Below, piece by piece: positions 4,243 to 50,985 of a stretch of DNA of 64,000 nt. The DNA is from Eledone cirrhosa (Eukaryota). The notes below the pieces were generated by a model that worked only from the letters and a program-made list of their open reading frames with translations, searched no databases and had not been told where the DNA came from. Position 1 is the stretch's first letter, and each line of letters opens with the position of its first letter. The stretch covers positions 70,556,001-70,620,000 of the forward strand of contig OZ024743.1 in NCBI GenBank assembly GCA_964016885.1. The letters are read 5' to 3'. Position numbers and translations under genes: made by a program.

Positions 4243-4508
4243 AGAGGCAGAGAGAGAAAACAAACTATGTTGGTTTGGTTGACAAGAATCCCCCCCGGCC
4301 CCATCTTAATTGTGTGTCAATCAATTAAAATGTCATTACTGCCAGAAAGAAAATTGGCAGAAAAAAAGTTATTGACGTTTGTTTATATATGTGTTATCTG
4401 TGGGCTGTATATATACATATATACACAGGCAACGATATATACGTATACACACGCATATATACATACACCGCTCCATACATGTGTAATTTTGCCTCTTGTG
4501 TTTTGTTT

Positions 4509-4643
<135 letters not shown>

Positions 4644-5763: not shown

Positions 5764-5787
5764 GTGCCTTTTCTCTTCACCACCAAC

Positions 5788-8700
5788 ATGGCTATGCTAA
5801 GAGTAGGCTGTTTAAATGCGCGTGGCCTGGGCTCAACTTGGAAGCAAGCAATGCTTCTAAATGACCTCAGGTCACAGCGTATAAATGTGATGGTTATTTG
5901 CGAGGCCCGGATCAGCAACGTGCGACAGCTGGCCCCCACCTTTGATGACTTTGAGATGCACGCATCTCTCTGTCAGCCCGGAGGTGGGGGTGGAGTTGTC
6001 GTTCTGCTGCAAAAACATCTGGGTCTCGCAACACAGATTGTACATTTGGACCCGGAGGGTCGACTAGTGGTTCTGGACCTTGGCAGTGGTAAAGGCGGAG
6101 CGTTTAGGTTGGTAGCCGCCTACGGCCCTTTCGGGTCAATGCGGCCGGACTTCTTCCATCGTCTGGAGACTTTTCTAGGGACGTCCCGCTCCTTGCTATT
6201 AGTGGGGGACTGGAATGGTATCCTAGATGCACGCTGGGACTACGTAGGGGCCTGCCCCGATAGAGAGGGGTGTAATAGCCTCAAAGGGTTAATCGGTCGA
6301 TTTGACCTGGCCGATAGATATCGACTAGATTTTCCGACTGCGCCAACCTGGACTTGGGCAAATCGTAGCGGATCATCTAGGTCGTACCTAGATAGGTTCT
6401 TAGTTAGAATTAAGGATAAGGACTTTTTAAGTTGTCCAAAACTGCGCATGGTTGGCTATTCAGACCACAAATTGGTGACCTGCATGGTCAACCTTGACAG
6501 AACTCATAGACAGGGCCCCGGTTACTGGAAGCTCAACTTGTCCTTGCCGGCAAGTAGAGCCTACAGGAATCGGATTAGTACGTTAGTTAAGGAACGGTTG
6601 ACTGGAGCGATCGTCAACAGCAGGTGGTGGGTATCTCTAAAGAGAGAGATTAGAGTAGTCTCGATAGAATTTAGTAAGGTTCTAGCTGCGGATAGGAATA
6701 GGAAGGAAAGGGAGCTAATAGATAGAGTAGAAGAGGCAATTAGAAGCGGCGACGTGACCAGAGTGCTAGCGTCGAGAACGGCTTTGGGCCAGTTTTTCGA
6801 CGCGAAGCACGAAGGCTGCGTTGTCCGAAGTAAAATACGTGCTCTAGGGAACGAGGGGACCAAAGCTGTTAGCTGGGCCCGCGTGACAGAGGCCAACAGT
6901 GGAACTAAATCCACCATCCGGTCTTTGCGAGACCTGGATGGACGGGCGATTCTTGACTCTAAGCAGATGTGTGAGGCCTTTCAAAGGCACTTTGCCCAAC
7001 TGTTCGGGAGGGGCGGGGAGCCGGTTGGGAACGTGGACTTCGGTCCATACCTCGACGGCCTGCCGCGCCTCTCGGACAGGGAGGCGAAGTCCTGCGAGGA
7101 GCCGATTTCGGCCGCTGAGATAGAGGACGTGCTGAGCCAATGCGGCAAACGCAAATCCCCGGGTCTCGATGGTCTTCCTTACGAATTATATCTAGATATG
7201 CCGGACTTGTTCCCTGATCTCCTCGAGGCGGTCTACTGCAACTGGCAACAGAACGGGAGAATTCCCTGTACTGTGACCAAGGGCGTAGTCACGCTAGTGA
7301 GGAAGGACGAGAACAAGGGGGACGAAATAAGTAACTTCAGGCCCATAACTCTGCTAAATACAGAGTTACAGATTTTGGCCAAGGTGCTAGCAAAGAGGTT
7401 GGCGCTTGTCGTGGGCAACCTGGTGGGAGATGCGCAGACATGCGCTATCCCGTCCAGGTCCATCCATGACAACCTCCACCTCATGCGATACATCATAGAG
7501 AGGGTTGGGAACGAACCCGGCTTTGGTGGGGCTCTGATCAACTTGGATCAATCTAAGGCGTTCGATAGGGTCGACCATGGTTACCTGGATGCGGTGCTAG
7601 CGGCGGCAGACTTCGGACCCGTTTTCAGGGGCTGGATCACTGCTATGCACAGCAGCCGCATCTGCTCTAGGGTCAAGGTGAACGGCTACCTCTCGGAGCC
7701 GTTCAAAATCGCGCGGTCCATCCGACAAGGGTGCCCTCTCTCCTCCCTTCTGTATGTGTTGACTCTCGAGCCACTACTGCGGAAGTTGGAGTTGTTGCAG
7801 GGCATCCCTTTGGAACCGGGATTGAGGAAAGCGGTGTCGGCCTACGCCGATGACGTGACAGTAATGGTGTCGACGGCCTCCGAAATCGAGGCGGTCGGCA
7901 CCTTACTGGAGGAGTACGAAAAGTTCACAGGGGCTAAGCTGAACCGGGACAAGTCGATCGGTTTGCAACTCGGCACGTGGAGGGGCAGACCGATGCCCTC
8001 CGATGGCGTCGTCGGACGCTGGACGGAGGGCCCGGTGAAGTTGCTCGGGGTCTGGTTCGGACCGGACCTCCAGGTGGAGAAAAACTGGGCGGAGGTTACG
8101 AACAGGGTGTTTGCACTGACCCAGAAGTGGGCCAGTTGCAAACTATCCCTGAAAGGTCGGGCGGAGGTGGCGAACACCTACATAGCGTCCGTCATCTACT
8201 ACCGCCTGACCGTAGTGCCCTGCCCAAGGGAAACCCTCACCAATATGGAGCGCGCGCTCTTCCAATTCCTTTGGAAGAGGCGGGCTCCTCTGGTGAGGAG
8301 ATCCATCTGCTGTCAACACCCTTCGAAAGGAGGGCTGGAGATGCCGTGGCTAATGATGCGTAAACACGCATTAAGGCTACGGCACCTCTACGTATTCCTC
8401 ACCGGACAACCGGTGTGGGCCTCGTTTGTGAGACGAACCTTTCCCAGACTCGTCTCACTCACCGAGCTGCAATCCTGTGTCAAGCAAAGACCGAGAAAAC
8501 TGGGCGCCTGGCACACTGAGTGTGCTCAGGCGCTCACCGCCCTCTGGCAGGCGGATCCGGTTATCAGTGGAGACTCCACCGCAACATTCTATAGAGGGCT
8601 GGTACGCAGCAGGTGCGACGACGCCCTCGGAGAAGCCCTAGACATGAAGGAGGACGAACTGGCCAGCCTGTTCGGTAGGACATTCAGCCCGGGACCTATG

Positions 8701-9225
8701 GACAACTTCCAGAAGTCCCTGGCCTGGCAGTGCTACCGAGGAGCTTTACCCGTTCGAGAAAGGCTCTACAGACACGGGCGCCCGGGTAGGGACCCCGCCA
8801 AAAAGATCTGTCCCAGATGCGTGTGCGACGAGGAAACCGTTGCACACGCATTGGTACACTGCTCGGGCGTAGCCGATCTGTGGGGCTATGTCGAACAACT
8901 GCTGTCAAGGGTGGGACCGATCCGGTTGACCACCGAGTCTATTGTAATGATCAAGCCGCCTCCCCCCTTCAAAGATGAAGCAGAGGCGGTGTTTCTGTGC
9001 GTAATAGCCATGGCGAAAGAGGTTGTATGGTGGATGCGTCTGAAAGGACTGAGGTCAGGCACCTTTCTCTCTGGCCAACAACTGGTCCGTTTCTTCCGAT
9101 ATCATTTCGGAAGAAGGATCAGGATGGAGAGAGAGGTGCTGCACCCCAGTCGTTTTTATGAAAGGTGGGTGAAAGTGGCGAGAATGGCCCGTGTGAATGG
9201 GCCTTCTCTTTACATGAGCCTGTAG
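5788..9225 (+). CDS. LINE ORF2: APE endonuclease, reverse transcriptase, CCHC zinc knuckle (intact, 1145 aa from ATG 5788)
   Basis: CLNARGL, LVGDWNG, SYLDRFL, YSDHKLV; KSPGLDGLPYE, NFRPITLLN, LDQSKAFDRVDH, IRQGCPLS, AYADDVT; CPRC..EETVAHALVHC. Kozak-like CCAACATGG. Confidence 0.95.
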   Translation: MAMLRVGCLNARGLGSTWKQAMLLNDLRSQRINVMVICEARISNVRQLAPTFDDFEMHASLCQPGGGGGVVVLLQKHLGLATQIVHLDPEGRLVVLDLGSGKGGAFRLVAAYGPFGSMRPDFFHRLETFLGTSRSLLLVGDWNGILDARWDYVGACPDREGCNSLKGLIGRFDLADRYRLDFPTAPTWTWANRSGSSRSYLDRFLVRIKDKDFLSCPKLRMVGYSDHKLVTCMVNLDRTHRQGPGYWKLNLSLPASRAYRNRISTLVKERLTGAIVNSRWWVSLKREIRVVSIEFSKVLAADRNRKERELIDRVEEAIRSGDVTRVLASRTALGQFFDAKHEGCVVRSKIRALGNEGTKAVSWARVTEANSGTKSTIRSLRDLDGRAILDSKQMCEAFQRHFAQLFGRGGEPVGNVDFGPYLDGLPRLSDREAKSCEEPISAAEIEDVLSQCGKRKSPGLDGLPYELYLDMPDLFPDLLEAVYCNWQQNGRIPCTVTKGVVTLVRKDENKGDEISNFRPITLLNTELQILAKVLAKRLALVVGNLVGDAQTCAIPSRSIHDNLHLMRYIIERVGNEPGFGGALINLDQSKAFDRVDHGYLDAVLAAADFGPVFRGWITAMHSSRICSRVKVNGYLSEPFKIARSIRQGCPLSSLLYVLTLEPLLRKLELLQGIPLEPGLRKAVSAYADDVTVMVSTASEIEAVGTLLEEYEKFTGAKLNRDKSIGLQLGTWRGRPMPSDGVVGRWTEGPVKLLGVWFGPDLQVEKNWAEVTNRVFALTQKWASCKLSLKGRAEVANTYIASVIYYRLTVVPCPRETLTNMERALFQFLWKRRAPLVRRSICCQHPSKGGLEMPWLMMRKHALRLRHLYVFLTGQPVWASFVRRTFPRLVSLTELQSCVKQRPRKLGAWHTECAQALTALWQADPVISGDSTATFYRGLVRSRCDDALGEALDMKEDELASLFGRTFSPGPMDNFQKSLAWQCYRGALPVRERLYRHGRPGRDPAKKICPRCVCDEETVAHALVHCSGVADLWGYVEQLLSRVGPIRLTTESIVMIKPPPPFKDEAEAVFLCVIAMAKEVVWWMRLKGLRSGTFLSGQQLVRFFRYHFGRRIRMEREVLHPSRFYERWVKVARMARVNGPSLYMSL

Positions 9226-18466: not shown

Positions 18467-21400
18467 GATTTCATTTATTGGCCACAATGGCCGACATATA
18501 GGGGACAATACAAAAGACTGGGACAGTGGGGTTTTACAGAAAAATCGAGTAAACAATATGAATAAACAAAGTAACAATAAAGTAACAAGAAAATTACAAC
18601 AAGAAAACATTCCCCAATAGGGGGGATGACCACCTAGGGTTCGCTCAGGTACCCCACCAGTCCTGAACGACCCGACGCTTCGAGAGAACCCTGGAAGGGC
18701 ACCCCTCTCCTCTTCAAATTTACCTACCTACAGCCGCATGACCAGAGTAGGTCCACTCACACGGGCCATTCTCGCCACATTCACCCACCTTTCAGCAAAT
18801 GTACTGGGGGGCAGCACTTCTCTCTCCACCCTCACCTTCCTTTCCAAGTGAAACTTGAAAAAGTTGATGAGGGATTGGCCGAAGAGAAAAGTGTCTGTCT
18901 TCACTCCTTTCAACCTCGTCCATCATACAACCTCTTTCGCTACTGCCACCAGACAGAGGGAAATTACCTGCCCTTCCTGGCCAAAAGAAGGCGGCGGGTC
19001 GATCTTCACTATGGACTCGGCCGATAGCCGGATCCGTTCTACACGCGACAACAGCTGTTCAACATAACTCCACAAGTCAGTAATGCACGGACACTGGACG
19101 AGTGCGTGCAGAACGGTTTCGTCGCTCTGCGCGCATCTCGGGCAGGTCCGTCTGACAGCACTTCCTTCCATGTAGAATTTATCTCGAACCGGTAGTGCCC
19201 CCCGGTAGCACTGCCAAGCGAGGGATTTTTGGAAATTATCCATCGTCCCCGGCTCGAAAGTCCTCCGGTACAGACTGGTTAGTTCGACTTCGTTGACTCC
19301 CAGAGCCTCTCCGAGTGCGTCGTCGCACTTGCCCACCACTAATCCTCTATAGAACTCGAGAGTGGAAGTTCCACTGACCGCATTGCCCGCCTGGTAGAGG
19401 GCAGTGAGTGCCTGGCAACATTCCAGATGCCAGTCACCCAGTCTCGGTCTCTTCTTGACCCAGGACTGCAACTCAGTCAAAGAAACGAGCTGCGGAAAGG
19501 CCCGTCTGACAAACGGCGACCACACCTGTTCACCGTTTAGGCCGAATATCTGGAGATGCCGCAGGCTCAGCGCGTGCCTGCGCATCATTAGCCACGGCAT
19601 GCCCAGCCCTCCACGTAGAGGGTGCTGGCAGCAGATGGACCGCCTCACCAGCGGAACCTGACCCCTCCACAAGAATTTGAAGAGGAGCCGCTCCAAGATG
19701 GCGAGGCGCGAACGGGGGCAAGGGACGACAGTCAGACGGTAGTAGATGGCGGACGCGATGTACGCGTTCGCCACCTCCGCCCGACCTTTCAGTGATAGCT
19801 TCATCCCAGCCCATTTCTGGGTGAGACTGACTACCCTGCCCGTCACCTCGTCCAAATTCTTATCCACCTGGAGGTCTGACCCGAACCAAACCCCTAGCAA
19901 CTTTACCGGTCCGTCCGTCCAGCGCCTAACGACGCTGTTGGACGGCATGGACTTTCCTCTCCAGGTGCCGAGTTGCAAGCCTACTGACTTTTCCGGGTTA
20001 AGTTTTGCTCCTGTCAACCTTTCATATTCCTCCAATAAGTTGCCGACCACCTCGATTTCTGAGGTGTCCGACACCATCACGGTGTCCGCATAAGCCTACA
20101 CAGCCTTTCCGCGTCCCGGTTCGAGCGGGATGCCCTGCAACATCTCCAGCTTCCGCAGTAAAGGCTCGAGAGTCAATACGTACAGAAGGGAGGAGAGAGG
20201 GCACCCTTGACGGACCGATCGGGAGATCTGAAACGGTTCCGAGAGGTGGCCATTACTTTTTACCATCGAGCAGGTGCCGCTGTGCATTACAGCGATCCAG
20301 CTTCTGAAGACGGGGCCGAAGCCAGCCGCCTTGAGGACAGCCTCCAGGTACCGATGGTCGACCCTATCGAATGCTTTCGATTGATCTAAATTGATCAGAG
20401 CCCCACCGAAGCCAGGTTTACACCCTACCCTCTCTATCATGTATCGCATTAGGTGGAGGTTGTCGTGTATGGACCTGGTTGGGGTTGCGCAAGTTTGCGC
20501 CTCCCCAACCAAATCCCCGACGACAAGCGCCAACCTCTTTGCTAACACCCTGGCCAAAATCTTAAACTCTGTGTTGAGCAGAGTTATGGGCCTGAAATTG
20601 TCTAATGTGTCCCTCTTGTTCTCGTCTTTCCTTATCAGCGTCACTACGCCCCGGCTCACAGAACTGGGAATACTCCCGTTTTGCTGCCAGTTGCAGTAGA
20701 GCGCTTCGAGGAGATTGGAGAACAAGTCTGGCATATTTACGTAAAGCTCGTAGGGAAGACCATCCAAACCGGGTGACTTGCGCCTCATGCAGCCTACAAG
20801 GGCATCCTGAATCTCGGCTGAAGTAATTGGCCTTTCGCAGCGCCCAGCGTCAGCCGTCGAGAGTTGCGGCAAGCCTTCGAGGTAGGGACTGAAGTCCGCC
20901 ACCATCTCTGACCCGCCACTTCCCCCGAACAACCGAGCAAAATGTTGGCGAAAGGCCTCACACATCCTCTTAGAATCGCTCAGCTCGAGCCCGTCTCGGT
21001 CCGTCAAAGACCGAATCGTGGTTTTATTACCACGCTGCGCCTCTGCCACGCGGGCCCATCGAACAGCTTTGGTTCCTTCGTTTCTCAGAGCACGCGCCTT
21101 AGCTCTGACAATGCAACCTTCGTGTTTCGCATTGAAAAAATGGTCTAATGTCATTCTCGCCGCTAGCACATCAGTTGCAATGCCACTACCAATAGCCTCG
21201 TCTAACTTATCTACCAACTCTCCCTCCTTTCTATTTTTCTCTAATGCTACTTCTTTGCTAAACTCTATCGACATTACTCTAATCTCTCTTTTGAGAGCCC
21301 CCCACCATCTATTGTTGACGACTCACCTGTCAACTTTTTCTTAACTAAATTGTTGACCTGGTCCCTGTAAGCCTTACGTGCCGGAAATGACATGTTTAGC

Positions 21401-22683
21401 TTCCGTTAACCAGGTCCTAACCTACGCGTCTTATCTAGGTCGACCATACAGATCACAAACTTGTGATCTGAATAGGCGACCGTTTCAAAACCTGGACAGC
21501 TTACACTATTTCTGTCTATTTTCCTAATGAATATCCTGTCTATATACCATCTAGATGACCCTATGCGGTTAGCCCTGGTCCACACTGGCGCATTAGGGAA
21601 ATCTAGTCGGCACCCCCGCTCCTATCGGATACTCCCACACAGTCCCAGCGTGCGTCTAAGATGCCGTTCCAGTCCCCCGCTAACAGTAAATGGCGAGACG
21701 TACCCAGAAAGGCTTCCTGGCGTCTAAAGAAGTCCGGCCGTCCTGCCCCAGTAGGAGCATAGACGGCCACCAGTCTAAAGGCACCACCTTCATTATTGTT
21801 CACGTCCAGGACCACCAACTTCCCGTCCGGGTCCCGGAAGATCGACCTTACCTCGAGATCCAGGCCTTTCCTAAACAGCACTGCCACCCCGCCTCCCATC
21901 CCCGGCTGGCTAACAGATGCAAAGATCTGATAGTGGTCGAAAATGGGGGCTAGAGCGCGCGTGTCAGAAATCCTTGTCTCGCTGACTGCAATTACATCCA
22001 TTTCTATAGACCTGAGGTCGTTGAGCAGGTGACCCTGCTTCCAGGACGATCCCAGGCCTCGAACATTTAAACATCCTACTCTTAATACGGCCATGTTGGC
22101 AGGTTAAACAGAGAGAGAGGAAGGTTTACTTACCTTCCGGGCTCTTGTGAAGGCCGGGTTGTTCGACCTCCATAGTTAGTGGGGTTTCTTTTGGGAACCC
22201 CTTTAAAAGTCTTGTAGTGGGTTTTACGTTCGGGGTTCCCACGTCCTGAGGAAAGCTGTCTCGTATTTCTTTGAATATGTCGAGCGACATTCGCACCAGA
22301 ACCAAATCTTCCGGCACGCGAAATGTGCTCGATTTAAACATTTCCCCCTCTTTTTGTATATTTTCGCTTCGTGCTACGAGGGCCATCAGTTCCTTGTTGG
22401 CCCTCCTGACGAGCACGAGGTTTTGTATGTTTTGTTGGTGTGATTTTATTTGTTTGCTTGGCTGTGGTGGTGATGGTTTTGGTGGTGTTGTTTCGGTTGT
22501 ATCTGTGTTTGTTGTGAGTGCGATGTCTGTGGTTTCAGATGTTTGTGTGTATATTTGTTCTTGCGTCTGTTTCGGTTATTCCACTGACCACGCTCTCCAA
22601 TACGCCTTAAGTTTCTTTTCCCGGCTCACCGGTCCACCTTTTTACATTAATCCAGCCAGGGTAGATAATCCATGCACCAGCTA
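18467..22683 (-). mobile_element. Tx1-type LINE, near full length but disrupted; (ATT)n at the 3' end
   Basis: ORF1 end 22126-22416; ORF2 pieces 21603-22094, 20096-21274, 18923-20080 and 18728-18913 are homologous to 5788-9225; stop and deletion at the YADD motif (AV*AYAD-T); 3' end GTGGCCAATAAATGAAATC(ATT)n. Confidence 0.92.
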
Positions 22684-32018: not shown

Positions 32019-32145
32019 GGTACACAGAGTCTAAGTTTCCCTAGTGTGATTATCTCTCACTATTTTAGTACTTACAAGGCTCGACGCCACTTAACTTCGA
32101 TGATCGGCCGAGTACTGTTGCTTTCAACGTGATATAGCCTTAAAC
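32019..32145 (-). pseudogene. Degenerate 5S rRNA-derived sequence
   Basis: Minus strand GTTTAAGGCTATATCACGTTGAAAGCA..CTCGGCCGATCATCGAAGTTAAG..CGTCGAGCC..AGTACT..GGGAAAC..CTGTGTACC then a T-run parallels metazoan 5S rRNA, with many substitutions and an insertion. Confidence 0.75.
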
Positions 32146-37625: not shown

Positions 37626-37836
37626 GTTTTAATATAGATGAGATTCTACAGGACTAGAACTGTTTCATTCTTTAGAAATCATCAGGAATCACTGATTCAA
37701 GGGATGCCTGATGATTTCTAAAGAATGAAACATTCTAGTCCTGTAGAATCTCATCTATATTAAAACTTTTATACTCTGCTATGTATTGAGTACCTTACTT
37801 ACTGTGGTTTCCTCCGATTCAACCCGGAATAACGTA

Positions 37837-41943: not shown

Positions 41944-41948
<5 letters not shown>

Positions 41949-42340
41949 TAGTCCTTCATCAGTGATCTTCCAACCATCATTGGTATTTCATCGCTTTAAA
42001 GACCATATACCTCCGGTTGGTGCGACCCACGGCTAAAAAAGGTCGTTGGGACACGTAAATAAAGGGGACAAGAGTGTAAACAAACAAAAATGGTGAAGCA
42101 ACGAAATAGAAATTTGCGACTTGACTCCTTCTTCCTCACCTTTCGTTGCTTCACCATTTTTGTTTGTTTACACTCTTGTCCCCTTTATTTACGTGTCCCA
42201 ACGACTTTTTTTAGCCGTTGCTCGCACCAACCGGAGGTATATGGTCTTTAAAGCGATGAAATACCAATGATGGTTGGAAGATCACTGATGAAGGACTAAC
42301 TTTATTCATATGTAACCCATTAGCAACCCCGCAGCACGTT

Positions 42341-43955: not shown

Positions 43956-44520
43956 CCGGGAAGCTGAAAGTTCCTGGCTTAAAGGTATCGCGAAAGGTGG
44001 AGCTGTTACATTTACATGGAAGGTAGGAGCACTCGCCGGCGGCTCGCACGTCATTTTTTTTTCTCTCGTTTTCCGTCGGAAACAAAAACGGTGGGCTCGG
44101 AAGGCAAGCAGATGCAGTAAACGGCGTTCGATCACTTTTTGCGACGTTCGGTGCGTAGTGGACGCGAACAACACGGCTCCACGCCCGGGCCACCGTGGAG
44201 CGACATGGCTTCGGGCTTGTTGGTGCGTCGGTAGCTTCCTTCTTCTCCTCCTCTCCGAGGACGAGGGAGGTCACCGTGACGCGCGGCAGGCGTTCGGCCG
44301 GTGGCCAACGGTCAACTGGGAAGTGGTACGGACCGGGGTTATCCGACTGTCTAATTAAAACAGAGCATCGCGTAGCCGGCCGAGCCGCCTAGGCGCGATG
44401 TGATTTCTGCCCACTGTAACAACTGTGAATCTGAGAGGGGAATATGTTGAATAAAATCATAATTAACTGATCCACTTGTATTTTCTTTTGCCCACAGCCA
44501 GGAACTTTTCAGCTGCCCGG
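43956..44520. mobile_element. mariner-type MITE with CpG-rich interior
   Basis: TA|CCGGGAAGCTGAAAGTTCCTGGCT ... AGCCAGGAACTTTTCAGCTGCCCGG|TA: terminal inverted repeats and TA duplication. Confidence 0.8.
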
Positions 44521-48230: not shown

Positions 48231-48329
<99 letters not shown>

Positions 48330-48375
48330 CTTAAAATGAGTGAGAATAAGAAGAAAGCAAGAACGGGGGGCGGGA

Positions 48376-48481
48376 GTTTTCCTCATCAGTTGTCTACTGG
48401 GCGTCTCGGATATTTCCACGCTTTAAAGACAAGATATCTACCCCTAAAGCGTTTAATAGCTGGGTAAGTTATTGGGAAAAC
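48376..48481 (-). ncRNA. Putative non-circularly-permuted hammerhead ribozyme (copy 3, most divergent), within a (TA)n-flanked element 48329-48535
   Basis: GUUUUCC..ACGCUUU..GAUA-UC^-UUGUCU..AAAGCGU-G-GAAA-UAUC..AGACAA-CUGAUGA-GGAAAAC. Confidence 0.7.
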
Positions 48482-48531
48482 GGAAGAGGGAAGGAGGGGA
48501 AATAGAAGGGAAAAGAGAATAAAAAAATATT

Positions 48532-48680
<149 letters not shown>

Positions 48681-50350: not shown

Positions 50351-50351
<1 letters not shown>

Positions 50352-50985
50352 AATGCGATGAAATACCAATGATCGTTGGCAAATCACTGATGAGGGACTC
50401 GTTTTATAACATGTAATCCATGTGCAACCATGCAGTATTCTTCTCCCCATATTTTTCATATATTTACCTAAACTGCGTTTCTATGTTTCTCGCTTTCTCT
50501 CTTACTGCTCCCTCGTTCTCTCTGTTTCTCTTACTTTCTTTCGTCCCCTCTGTCATGTCAGTTAACACTTTCTCTCTACTGACCTCTTCCTCGCACTTCC
50601 ACTCACTCACTTTCTGTTTCTCCCCTTCTTACTTCCTCCCGTTCGCTACGAATCCGATTTTCCTTCTTTCTCACATCGGATTCACTAGCGAAAAGTCTGT
50701 TTCTTACACGCTCATGTATTCACCCAGTTTATGCTAACAGAATAACCATGTTGCTTGTTTTTCTTTCCATCTTCGGTTAGCTTTCCCCTGTGTTGTTTAC
50801 TTGTCTCACTCGCTTTACGCGTTTCAATTGTCCCAATAACTTATTTTAGTTATTGTCGCACCAACGTGAGGTATATGATTTTTAATGCGATTAAATACCA
50901 ATGATCGTTGGCAAATCATTGATGAGGGACTCATTTTATAACATGTAATCCATGTGCAACCATGCAGTATTCTTCTCCCCATATT

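Follow-up and report, generated by a model that had tools for sequence, protein, structure and literature searches.

A likely self-cleaving hammerhead with a split core in a decayed non-coding retroelement copy of Eledone cirrhosa, and its shared fold with Naiad 3′ ends

In a 64,000-nt stretch (hereafter the window) of the TA-rich, 3.0-Gb genome of Eledone cirrhosa, we identified a rewired hammerhead motif with an intact core in a non-circular order, at positions 48481-48376 of the minus strand. Our preferred reading, to which we assign a probability of roughly 0.78, is that this is a decayed, 5′-truncated copy of a non-coding, tandem retroelement, carrying a likely self-cleaving, non-circular hammerhead with a predicted four-way junction, and that its fold is the one found at the 3′ ends of Naiads, a clade of Penelope-like elements (PLEs).

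All components of a hammerhead core, specifically CUGANGA, GAAA, and a UH cleavage site, were present in the window copy, and its sequence suggests that the motif is likely a self-cleaving hammerhead ribozyme. An earlier note had proposed a rearranged hammerhead of a third family here, without giving the strand; this held, in that the core was ordered on the minus strand as cleavage site (U48434, C48433), GAAA (48416), and CUGAUGA (48389), and both stems adjoining it, stem I (6 of 6 pairs) and stem III (5 of 5 pairs), were intact. These two stems cross, forming a pseudoknot as in the non-circular type SGC. The four motifs held to be shared with two other copies in the window were all found on this strand (CCCAAYRAC near 48476, UUUAAAGCG at 48427, GAAAUA at 48416, and CUGAUGA at 48389), but the second was common only to this copy and copy 1, with copy 2 differing by one base. 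The UC cleavage site was likewise present in the window copy, where position 17 (48433) is C, but was no hallmark of the family, since the cleavage nucleotide across 37 family-3 copies was C in 25, A in 11, and a gap in 1. By analogy with other hammerheads, the cut would fall between 48433 and 48432.

Comparison of families gave the strand order 5′-a-x-II-y-III′-H-I-linker-II′-GAAA-III-y′-I′-CUGAUGA-a′-3′, with the cut predicted after H and a linker of four bases between stem I and the 3′ strand of stem II. On the minus strand of the window, block S (48427..48438) comprised the stem III 3′ strand (48438-48434), C17 (48433), and a stem I strand (48432-48427), while block G (48409..48422) comprised the stem II 3′ strand (48422-48417), G12-A13-A14-A15.1 (48416-48413), and a stem III strand (48413-48409). 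Following these were y′ (48401-48397), the stem I partner (48395-48390), CUGAUGA (48389-48383), and a′ (48382-48377), together spanning 48377..48401. The strand a′ pairs not with stem II but with helix a at the 5′ end of the motif (48475..48480, partner 48377-48382), at 6 of 6 positions in the window copy. Between helix a and block S, also on the minus strand, were hairpin x, with 7 bp and a 7-nt loop (48454..48474; two pairs broken in the window copy), the stem II 5′ strand (48448..48453, partner 48417-48422), which places position 10.1 at 48453, upstream of the cleavage site, and the 5′ strand of helix y (48443..48447, partner 48397-48401; one pair broken). Helices a and x are interposed between A9 and position 10.1, and the link from A9 to stem II is broken by this two-helix domain.

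Eight sequence clusters among the fetched loci passed a parse for all six helices. Families L159, L008, and L081, whose helix sequences are unrelated, left zero unpaired bases at the junction, and the other clusters had one to two; stem II of family L159 closes with the canonical G10.1-C11.1. We propose that helices a and x stack coaxially, end to end, which would generate a four-way junction that holds A9 and position 10.1 side by side even though they are unlinked in the chain. Stem II would then lie stacked beneath the A9·G12 pair, the arrangement of hammerheads in general, and helix y, which is likely the equivalent of the stem I-II interaction helix, would take the place of the contact between stems I and II.

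The window copy itself has decayed. It differed from the commonest letter of 36 relatives at five positions inside the motif, three of which break pairs kept in 33-34 of the 36 relatives (48474:48454, 48469:48459, and 48445:48399). Stem II was paired at 5 of 6 positions, its closing pair (48453:48417) being A·G here and A-U in 16 of 36 relatives, and the junction-side pairs of helix a were kept in 32-35 of 36 and the distal ones in 23-27. The window copy probably cleaves poorly or not at all, and it is doubtful that it retains useful activity. Among the first 100 of the 533 family-3 matches listed, the base before GAAA (position 11.1) was A about 63 times, T 26 times, and G 11 times, so that most family-3 copies do not have a Watson-Crick closing pair of stem II; this common mismatch would be a point against fast cleavage. 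The minimum-free-energy fold of the window copy, computed by a method that cannot form pseudoknots, differed from our model (z -1.77) and was set aside as uninformative for an RNA of this kind. A long helix extending stem II in the window copy was rejected as private, with its first extra pair found in 1 of 36 relatives. We also noted a possible seventh short helix (48462-48465 with 48439-48442, minus strand) joining the loop of x to the linker that precedes stem III, which may alternatively be a competing fold. It was retained by 33-36 of 36 family-3 relatives and, by eye, recurred as 3-4 bp with different letters in the L003, L064, L049, and L159 types.

No Rfam hammerhead model matched positions 48330-48530 at E ≤ 10, and none reached the gathering score in six loci, which sets the motif apart from hammerhead types I, II, and III, the circular permutations of the three-way junction. 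Across the whole window, the Rfam matches listed (150 of 356) included microsatellite miRNA artefacts, which were set aside. The closest counterparts are the non-circular types described by Eckert et al. (2023; PMC10085705). According to the passages on type SGC (HRIMA-1 and variants), it resembles our fold in its block order S-G-C with a full core, in pseudoknotted stems I and III, in a short linker between stems I and II, and in having these two stems tied by a helix, which here is y and connects their far sides. In type SGC, however, the strand after CUGAUGA forms stem II, whereas here it forms helix a, and the stem II 5′ strand lies upstream behind hairpin x. Published SGC descriptors would miss this fold because, as laid out in that paper, they require direct stem II pairing. 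Type CSG, represented there by two metagenome sequences, has the same cyclic strand order as our fold, which amounts to CSG with its chain opened between A9 and 10.1 and held together there by helices a and x, such that block C (CUGAnGA with its flanking stems), intact in CSG, is split here. The corresponding passages treat block C as uninterruptible, report that non-circular SGC and CSG hammerheads cleave in vitro, and place SGC in metatranscriptomes rather than in genomes of known organisms; here the fold is in an animal genome. Our literature search returned no description of split or permuted hammerheads in Naiads or animal genomes, and the literature examined held no precedent for a break between A9 and 10.1 in a natural hammerhead, although a precedent for extra helices near the core is possible. 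The pertinent sections of PMC13725137, PMC10162972, PMC3088659, PMC6765202, and PMC6155905 contain no such fold, and the first of these cites Weinberg et al. (2015; PMC4509812) as one of the works on hammerhead variants that have additional helices or are permuted in other ways.

The family-3 fragment that carries the motif is 5′-truncated and about 195 nt long (48329..48524, minus strand), and lies between two (TA)n tracts, both insertion targets, at 48233..48328 on its 3′ side and at about 48536-48678 on its 5′ side. Its 3′ end is one of two that recur in the family at TA, 49-57 nt past the core in 12 of 27 copies and 84-103 nt past it in 11 of 27. Family 3 had 2346 first-look candidates in the genome, and the best relatives of the window copy were 88-90% identical, with BLAST matches starting at query position 7. 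An exact intact-core pattern matched 533 times versus 0 in the control, the core was intact in 26 of 37 copies, and tandem offsets of 533 and 560 give a unit of 533-560 nt in dimers.

Two sister families were also in the window. Family 1 (957 first-look candidates; unit 631-638 nt) was represented by a copy with intact core (42192..42300, plus strand) and its inverted twin (41947..42055, minus strand), a Penelope-type inverted arrangement. Family 2 (2859 first-look candidates; tandem unit 530-534 nt) was represented by a partial copy with blocks G and C only (50351..50398, plus strand), one unit (532 nt) upstream of a full copy (copy 2; 50830..50930, plus strand), in which G12 and C3 are changed and which is predicted to be inactive. 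Both families are young, at 98-99% identity across chromosomes, with tandems in 9 of 30 family-1 and 12 of 29 family-2 loci, and the family-2 3′ end was exactly 65 nt past CUGAUGA, at TA, in 20 of 28 copies. With these candidate numbers and the eight clusters, the notion of an abundant class with several families was upheld. The elements lie in TA targets, end at fixed 3′ positions with TA microhomology, are truncated to varying extents at the 5′ end, and occur as partial tandems and inverted copies, traits that are common to Naiads and other PLE clades. Element units contained no reverse transcriptase (RT) or endonuclease frame, and are non-coding. Additionally, head-to-head duplications that break inside the ribozyme have given palindromes of blocks G and C (L154/L155, L161/L162, and L178-L180).

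The same split fold was recognized by eye near the 3′ end of 10 of 44 Naiad consensus sequences examined in the supplement to Craig et al. (2021; PMC8557442), namely Bfor (with a weak stem I), 3_Chem, Amil, Aacu, Anas, 2_Movir, Plae, EuTe, Obim, and Ovul. Most of these ends have G10.1-C11.1, and Naiad consensus ends carry a single local copy of the fold. Seven nematode consensuses (three Nbra, Hcon, Hpol, Asuum, and one Pristionchus) instead had, again by eye, an intact type CSG. Coverage of the supplement comprised matches 1-56 of 62 for CUGAUGA, all for CUGACGA and CUGAGGA, and 10 of 43 for CUGAAGA, together with the entry ends from Bfor to Ovul, and motifs broken at line ends were missed. 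The occurrence of the fold in Naiads of five phyla argues for the age of the class, which the earlier note had surmised. The relevant passages of that study report Naiads as being without canonical hammerheads and mark eight 'half core' cases; the 'HHR_half_core' label covers Naiad_Ovul, Hpol, and 3_Nbra, and the passages on half cores assign them no fold. They also describe Penelope-like insertion traits like those of the window families, and cephalopod Naiads as old remnants. Naiads and the window element are alike in their TA-microsatellite targets, partial tandems, inverted 5′ copies, and 3′ fold, and unlike in that the window element is without the frame of an autonomous Naiad, with its N-terminal GIY-YIG and C-terminal RT. 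Ostracod and spider Naiad entries in the supplement contain candidate cores. At the ends of bivalve Naiads (CGi, Sglo, Olur, Tgra, and Pmar) no CUGANGA core was seen by eye; their termini share another conserved motif, in which several crossing helices could form and which may be another ribozyme class.

A link between the fold and a Naiad protein came from metagenome contigs, which we scanned with a short pattern from coral Naiads, recovering 120 loci, 98 of which had full context. All six helices were found in 23 of these 98, and a direct stem II of the SGC type in 0 of 98; the latter pairing was rejected for the window copies as well, in which it would have at most one direct pair. Among the 43 loci with at least 600 nt upstream, two Naiad peptide motifs were found in none, and a Naiad frame was found in only one, L265, where a same-strand reading frame ends 386 nt upstream of the fold; along its length, this frame shares 65% identity with the C-terminus of P0029 (E 3.7e-22). 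This 953-aa protein has an N-terminal GIY-YIG (Pfam E 7e-4, below the curated cut-off) and C-terminal RT motifs, and had no match in viral contigs.

The suggestion that the motif is linked to a PLE therefore stands insofar as the Naiad clade is concerned, by way of the L265 frame and the consensus ends, but no intact partner Naiad was found in this genome among the part of the candidates scored. A DKA-motif pattern hit six places, all degenerate and none an intact Naiad. Two comparisons with proteins, in which 150 of 237 and 81 of 5552 candidates were scored, gave 148 and 79 matches, of which the Naiad-like ones mostly had stops; in the second, made with a full Naiad RT, the best matches reached 27-38% identity and mostly contained stops. 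A Naiad remnant fragment had no relatives in one protein search and none in metagenome contigs, with 72 weak matches among representatives. Downstream of the Naiad remnants in this genome there was no intact split core, except for one TA-bounded copy 2.9 kb downstream in L219. In L218 (plus strand, about 4450-4510), a degenerate GAAA and then a CUGAUGA with one base changed shortly follow the end of a Naiad remnant frame, and are too decayed to parse.

The small elements of this genome might, then, fold as described but be moved by another PLE clade, of Neptune or Penelope type, rather than by Naiads, an explanation that we hold to be possible though less probable than not, and one compatible with our main reading except for the partner. 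It would fit with the youth of families 1 and 2 in a genome whose Naiads are old remnants, as the cephalopod passages of PMC8557442 also report, and with a PLE family with C-terminal endonuclease that had 1789 motif matches, some with long open frames. This family came to light through a CxxC-GIY pattern aimed at young Naiads, which returned these elements instead. Nevertheless, the fold was seen on Naiad ends, and 30 loci of the C-terminal-endonuclease family yielded nothing but one loose, unconvincing match; moreover, with part of the candidates scored, a young Naiad may have been missed. The young families may be moved by such a missed Naiad or by cross-mobilization.

Metazoan non-LTR retrozymes offer a model for how such elements could multiply. 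As portrayed in the relevant parts of two studies (PMC7229834; Li et al. 2026, 10.64898/2026.07.22.740005), they too consist of non-coding units in tandem, each with a single hammerhead, and PLEs probably move them. Their hammerheads are of type I and their units of about 170-400 nt (PMC7229834) or 51-972 nt (Li et al. 2026), whereas the elements here have units of 530-640 nt and a non-circular split ribozyme, with no type I hammerhead. By extension from the cycle outlined for retrozymes (PMC7229834), we infer that tandem transcripts would be cut to unit length and ligated to circles, which a Penelope-like enzyme would reverse-transcribe into TA tracts. Such a cycle of cutting, circularization, and reverse transcription would produce 3′ ends that are fixed and 5′ ends that vary, along with the partial tandems and the inverted copies.

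Whether the fold cuts at all bears on a second alternative, which we consider improbable, that it is a non-catalytic, hammerhead-derived recognition structure for a Penelope-like RT, kept for its shape or for protein binding. Its location, 50-100 nt from a fixed 3′ end, is where reverse transcription would start, most family-3 copies have the 10.1:11.1 mismatch, and genomic copies span an uncut site. Circles or uncut multimers would also yield site-spanning copies, however, and although the helix sequences turn over between unrelated families and phyla, the catalytic nucleotides are conserved. Position 17, moreover, is A, C, or U in the eight clusters and never G.

Slightly less probable again is that the ribozyme works only in a dimer or circle, with a′ of one unit pairing with a of the next in the manner of CSG, and with the remainder of the unit forming a loop in the connection between A9 and stem II. 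Tandem units are common, the nematode Naiads carry an intact CSG that is the same fold opened elsewhere, and animal type I hammerheads are known to cleave as dimers, as related in a portion of PMC6155905. Against this, all six helices can form within one 110-nt stretch, and the Naiad consensus ends have only the single local copy.

Support for the pairing itself came from a MAFFT alignment, not fitted to the structure, in which 16 copies chosen by hand represented about six related families. The 33 named pairs were standard in 93.4% of cells versus 80.2 ± 1.0 when shuffled, and slid registers paired in 28-48% of cells. Across families, 18 of the 33 pairs had changed on both sides, a number reached in 0 of 500 shuffles. 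Because the aligned copies are relatives and also served to derive the structure, these counts are not probabilities. Every one of the six helices had at least one two-sided change, including 3 of 7 pairs in hairpin x and 5 of 6 in helix y. A measure of further pair types was not above shuffles (439/500), and helix a had the lowest score (76.6%), owing to a one-base register shift of family 3 in this alignment. Restoration of each helix by compensatory changes, as claimed in the earlier note, is thereby seen at the level of the family, but not in the window copy, with its three broken pairs and A·G closing of stem II.

A tight six-helix descriptor, on which the window copy scores 25 of 28, matched twice in 600 kb of unselected genome and once in 20.9 Mb of dinucleotide-shuffled sequence, the comparison that had been suggested for this motif; it also matched 108 times in 182 mostly selected, partly overlapping sources. 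Extrapolated from the unselected genome, intact copies would number on the order of 10,000, with wide uncertainty. A core pattern independent of family matched 725 times in the genome versus 30 in the reversed control, and its loci led to several additional families that share the fold. An origin of the pairing by chance, in a genome rich in repeats, is thus refuted by the tight descriptor, the covariation, and the core pattern, even though a looser descriptor gave junk, with 3 real split matches, one of them spurious, against 3 in ten shuffles of the 600 kb.

It is more probable than not, if less secure than our main reading, that Naiads are not ribozyme-free, and would instead carry active non-circular hammerheads. 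Nematodes would have the intact CSG, whereas ctenophores, cnidarians, acanthocephalans, crustaceans, and cephalopods would have the previously undescribed form with a split core and four-way junction, and each genome would contain non-autonomous circular-RNA parasites by the thousand. If true, the split form would be the first natural hammerhead with a broken backbone from A9 to stem II, and these the first non-circular permutations widespread in animal genomes. The stated exception in PLE biology, of Naiads without canonical hammerheads (as worded in passages of PMC8557442), would be removed, and the assumption that CUGAnGA and its flanking stems are uninterruptible (per the passages of PMC10085705) would be overturned. 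Non-circular permutations, described from environmental sequences, would gain a place as high-copy components of animal genomes, and a single retroelement clade would offer a plausible path between the CSG form and SGC-like ones. Surveys undercount the motif because standard descriptors and Rfam miss it.

Finally, several other features of the window and genome were noted. Ordinary type I hammerhead-like motifs occurred in other small elements, some as inverted pairs, at 37685 (minus), 39572 (plus), 54612 (minus), 30433 (minus)/30645 (plus), 48786 (plus), and 63165 (minus), and the 600 kb of unselected genome had about 20 type I matches versus the 2 of the split form. A 5S rRNA-like sequence at 32019-32145 (minus strand; 40 bits versus an Rfam gathering score of 38) is probably a pseudogene or the head of a SINE, and the segment at 44277-44420, beside an element end, resembles a segment of 28S rRNA. 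LINE-type retrotransposons were present at 5764-9222 (plus) and 18926-22103 (minus), with a 1153-aa open frame that has an endonuclease-like start and YxDD, alongside broken relatives.
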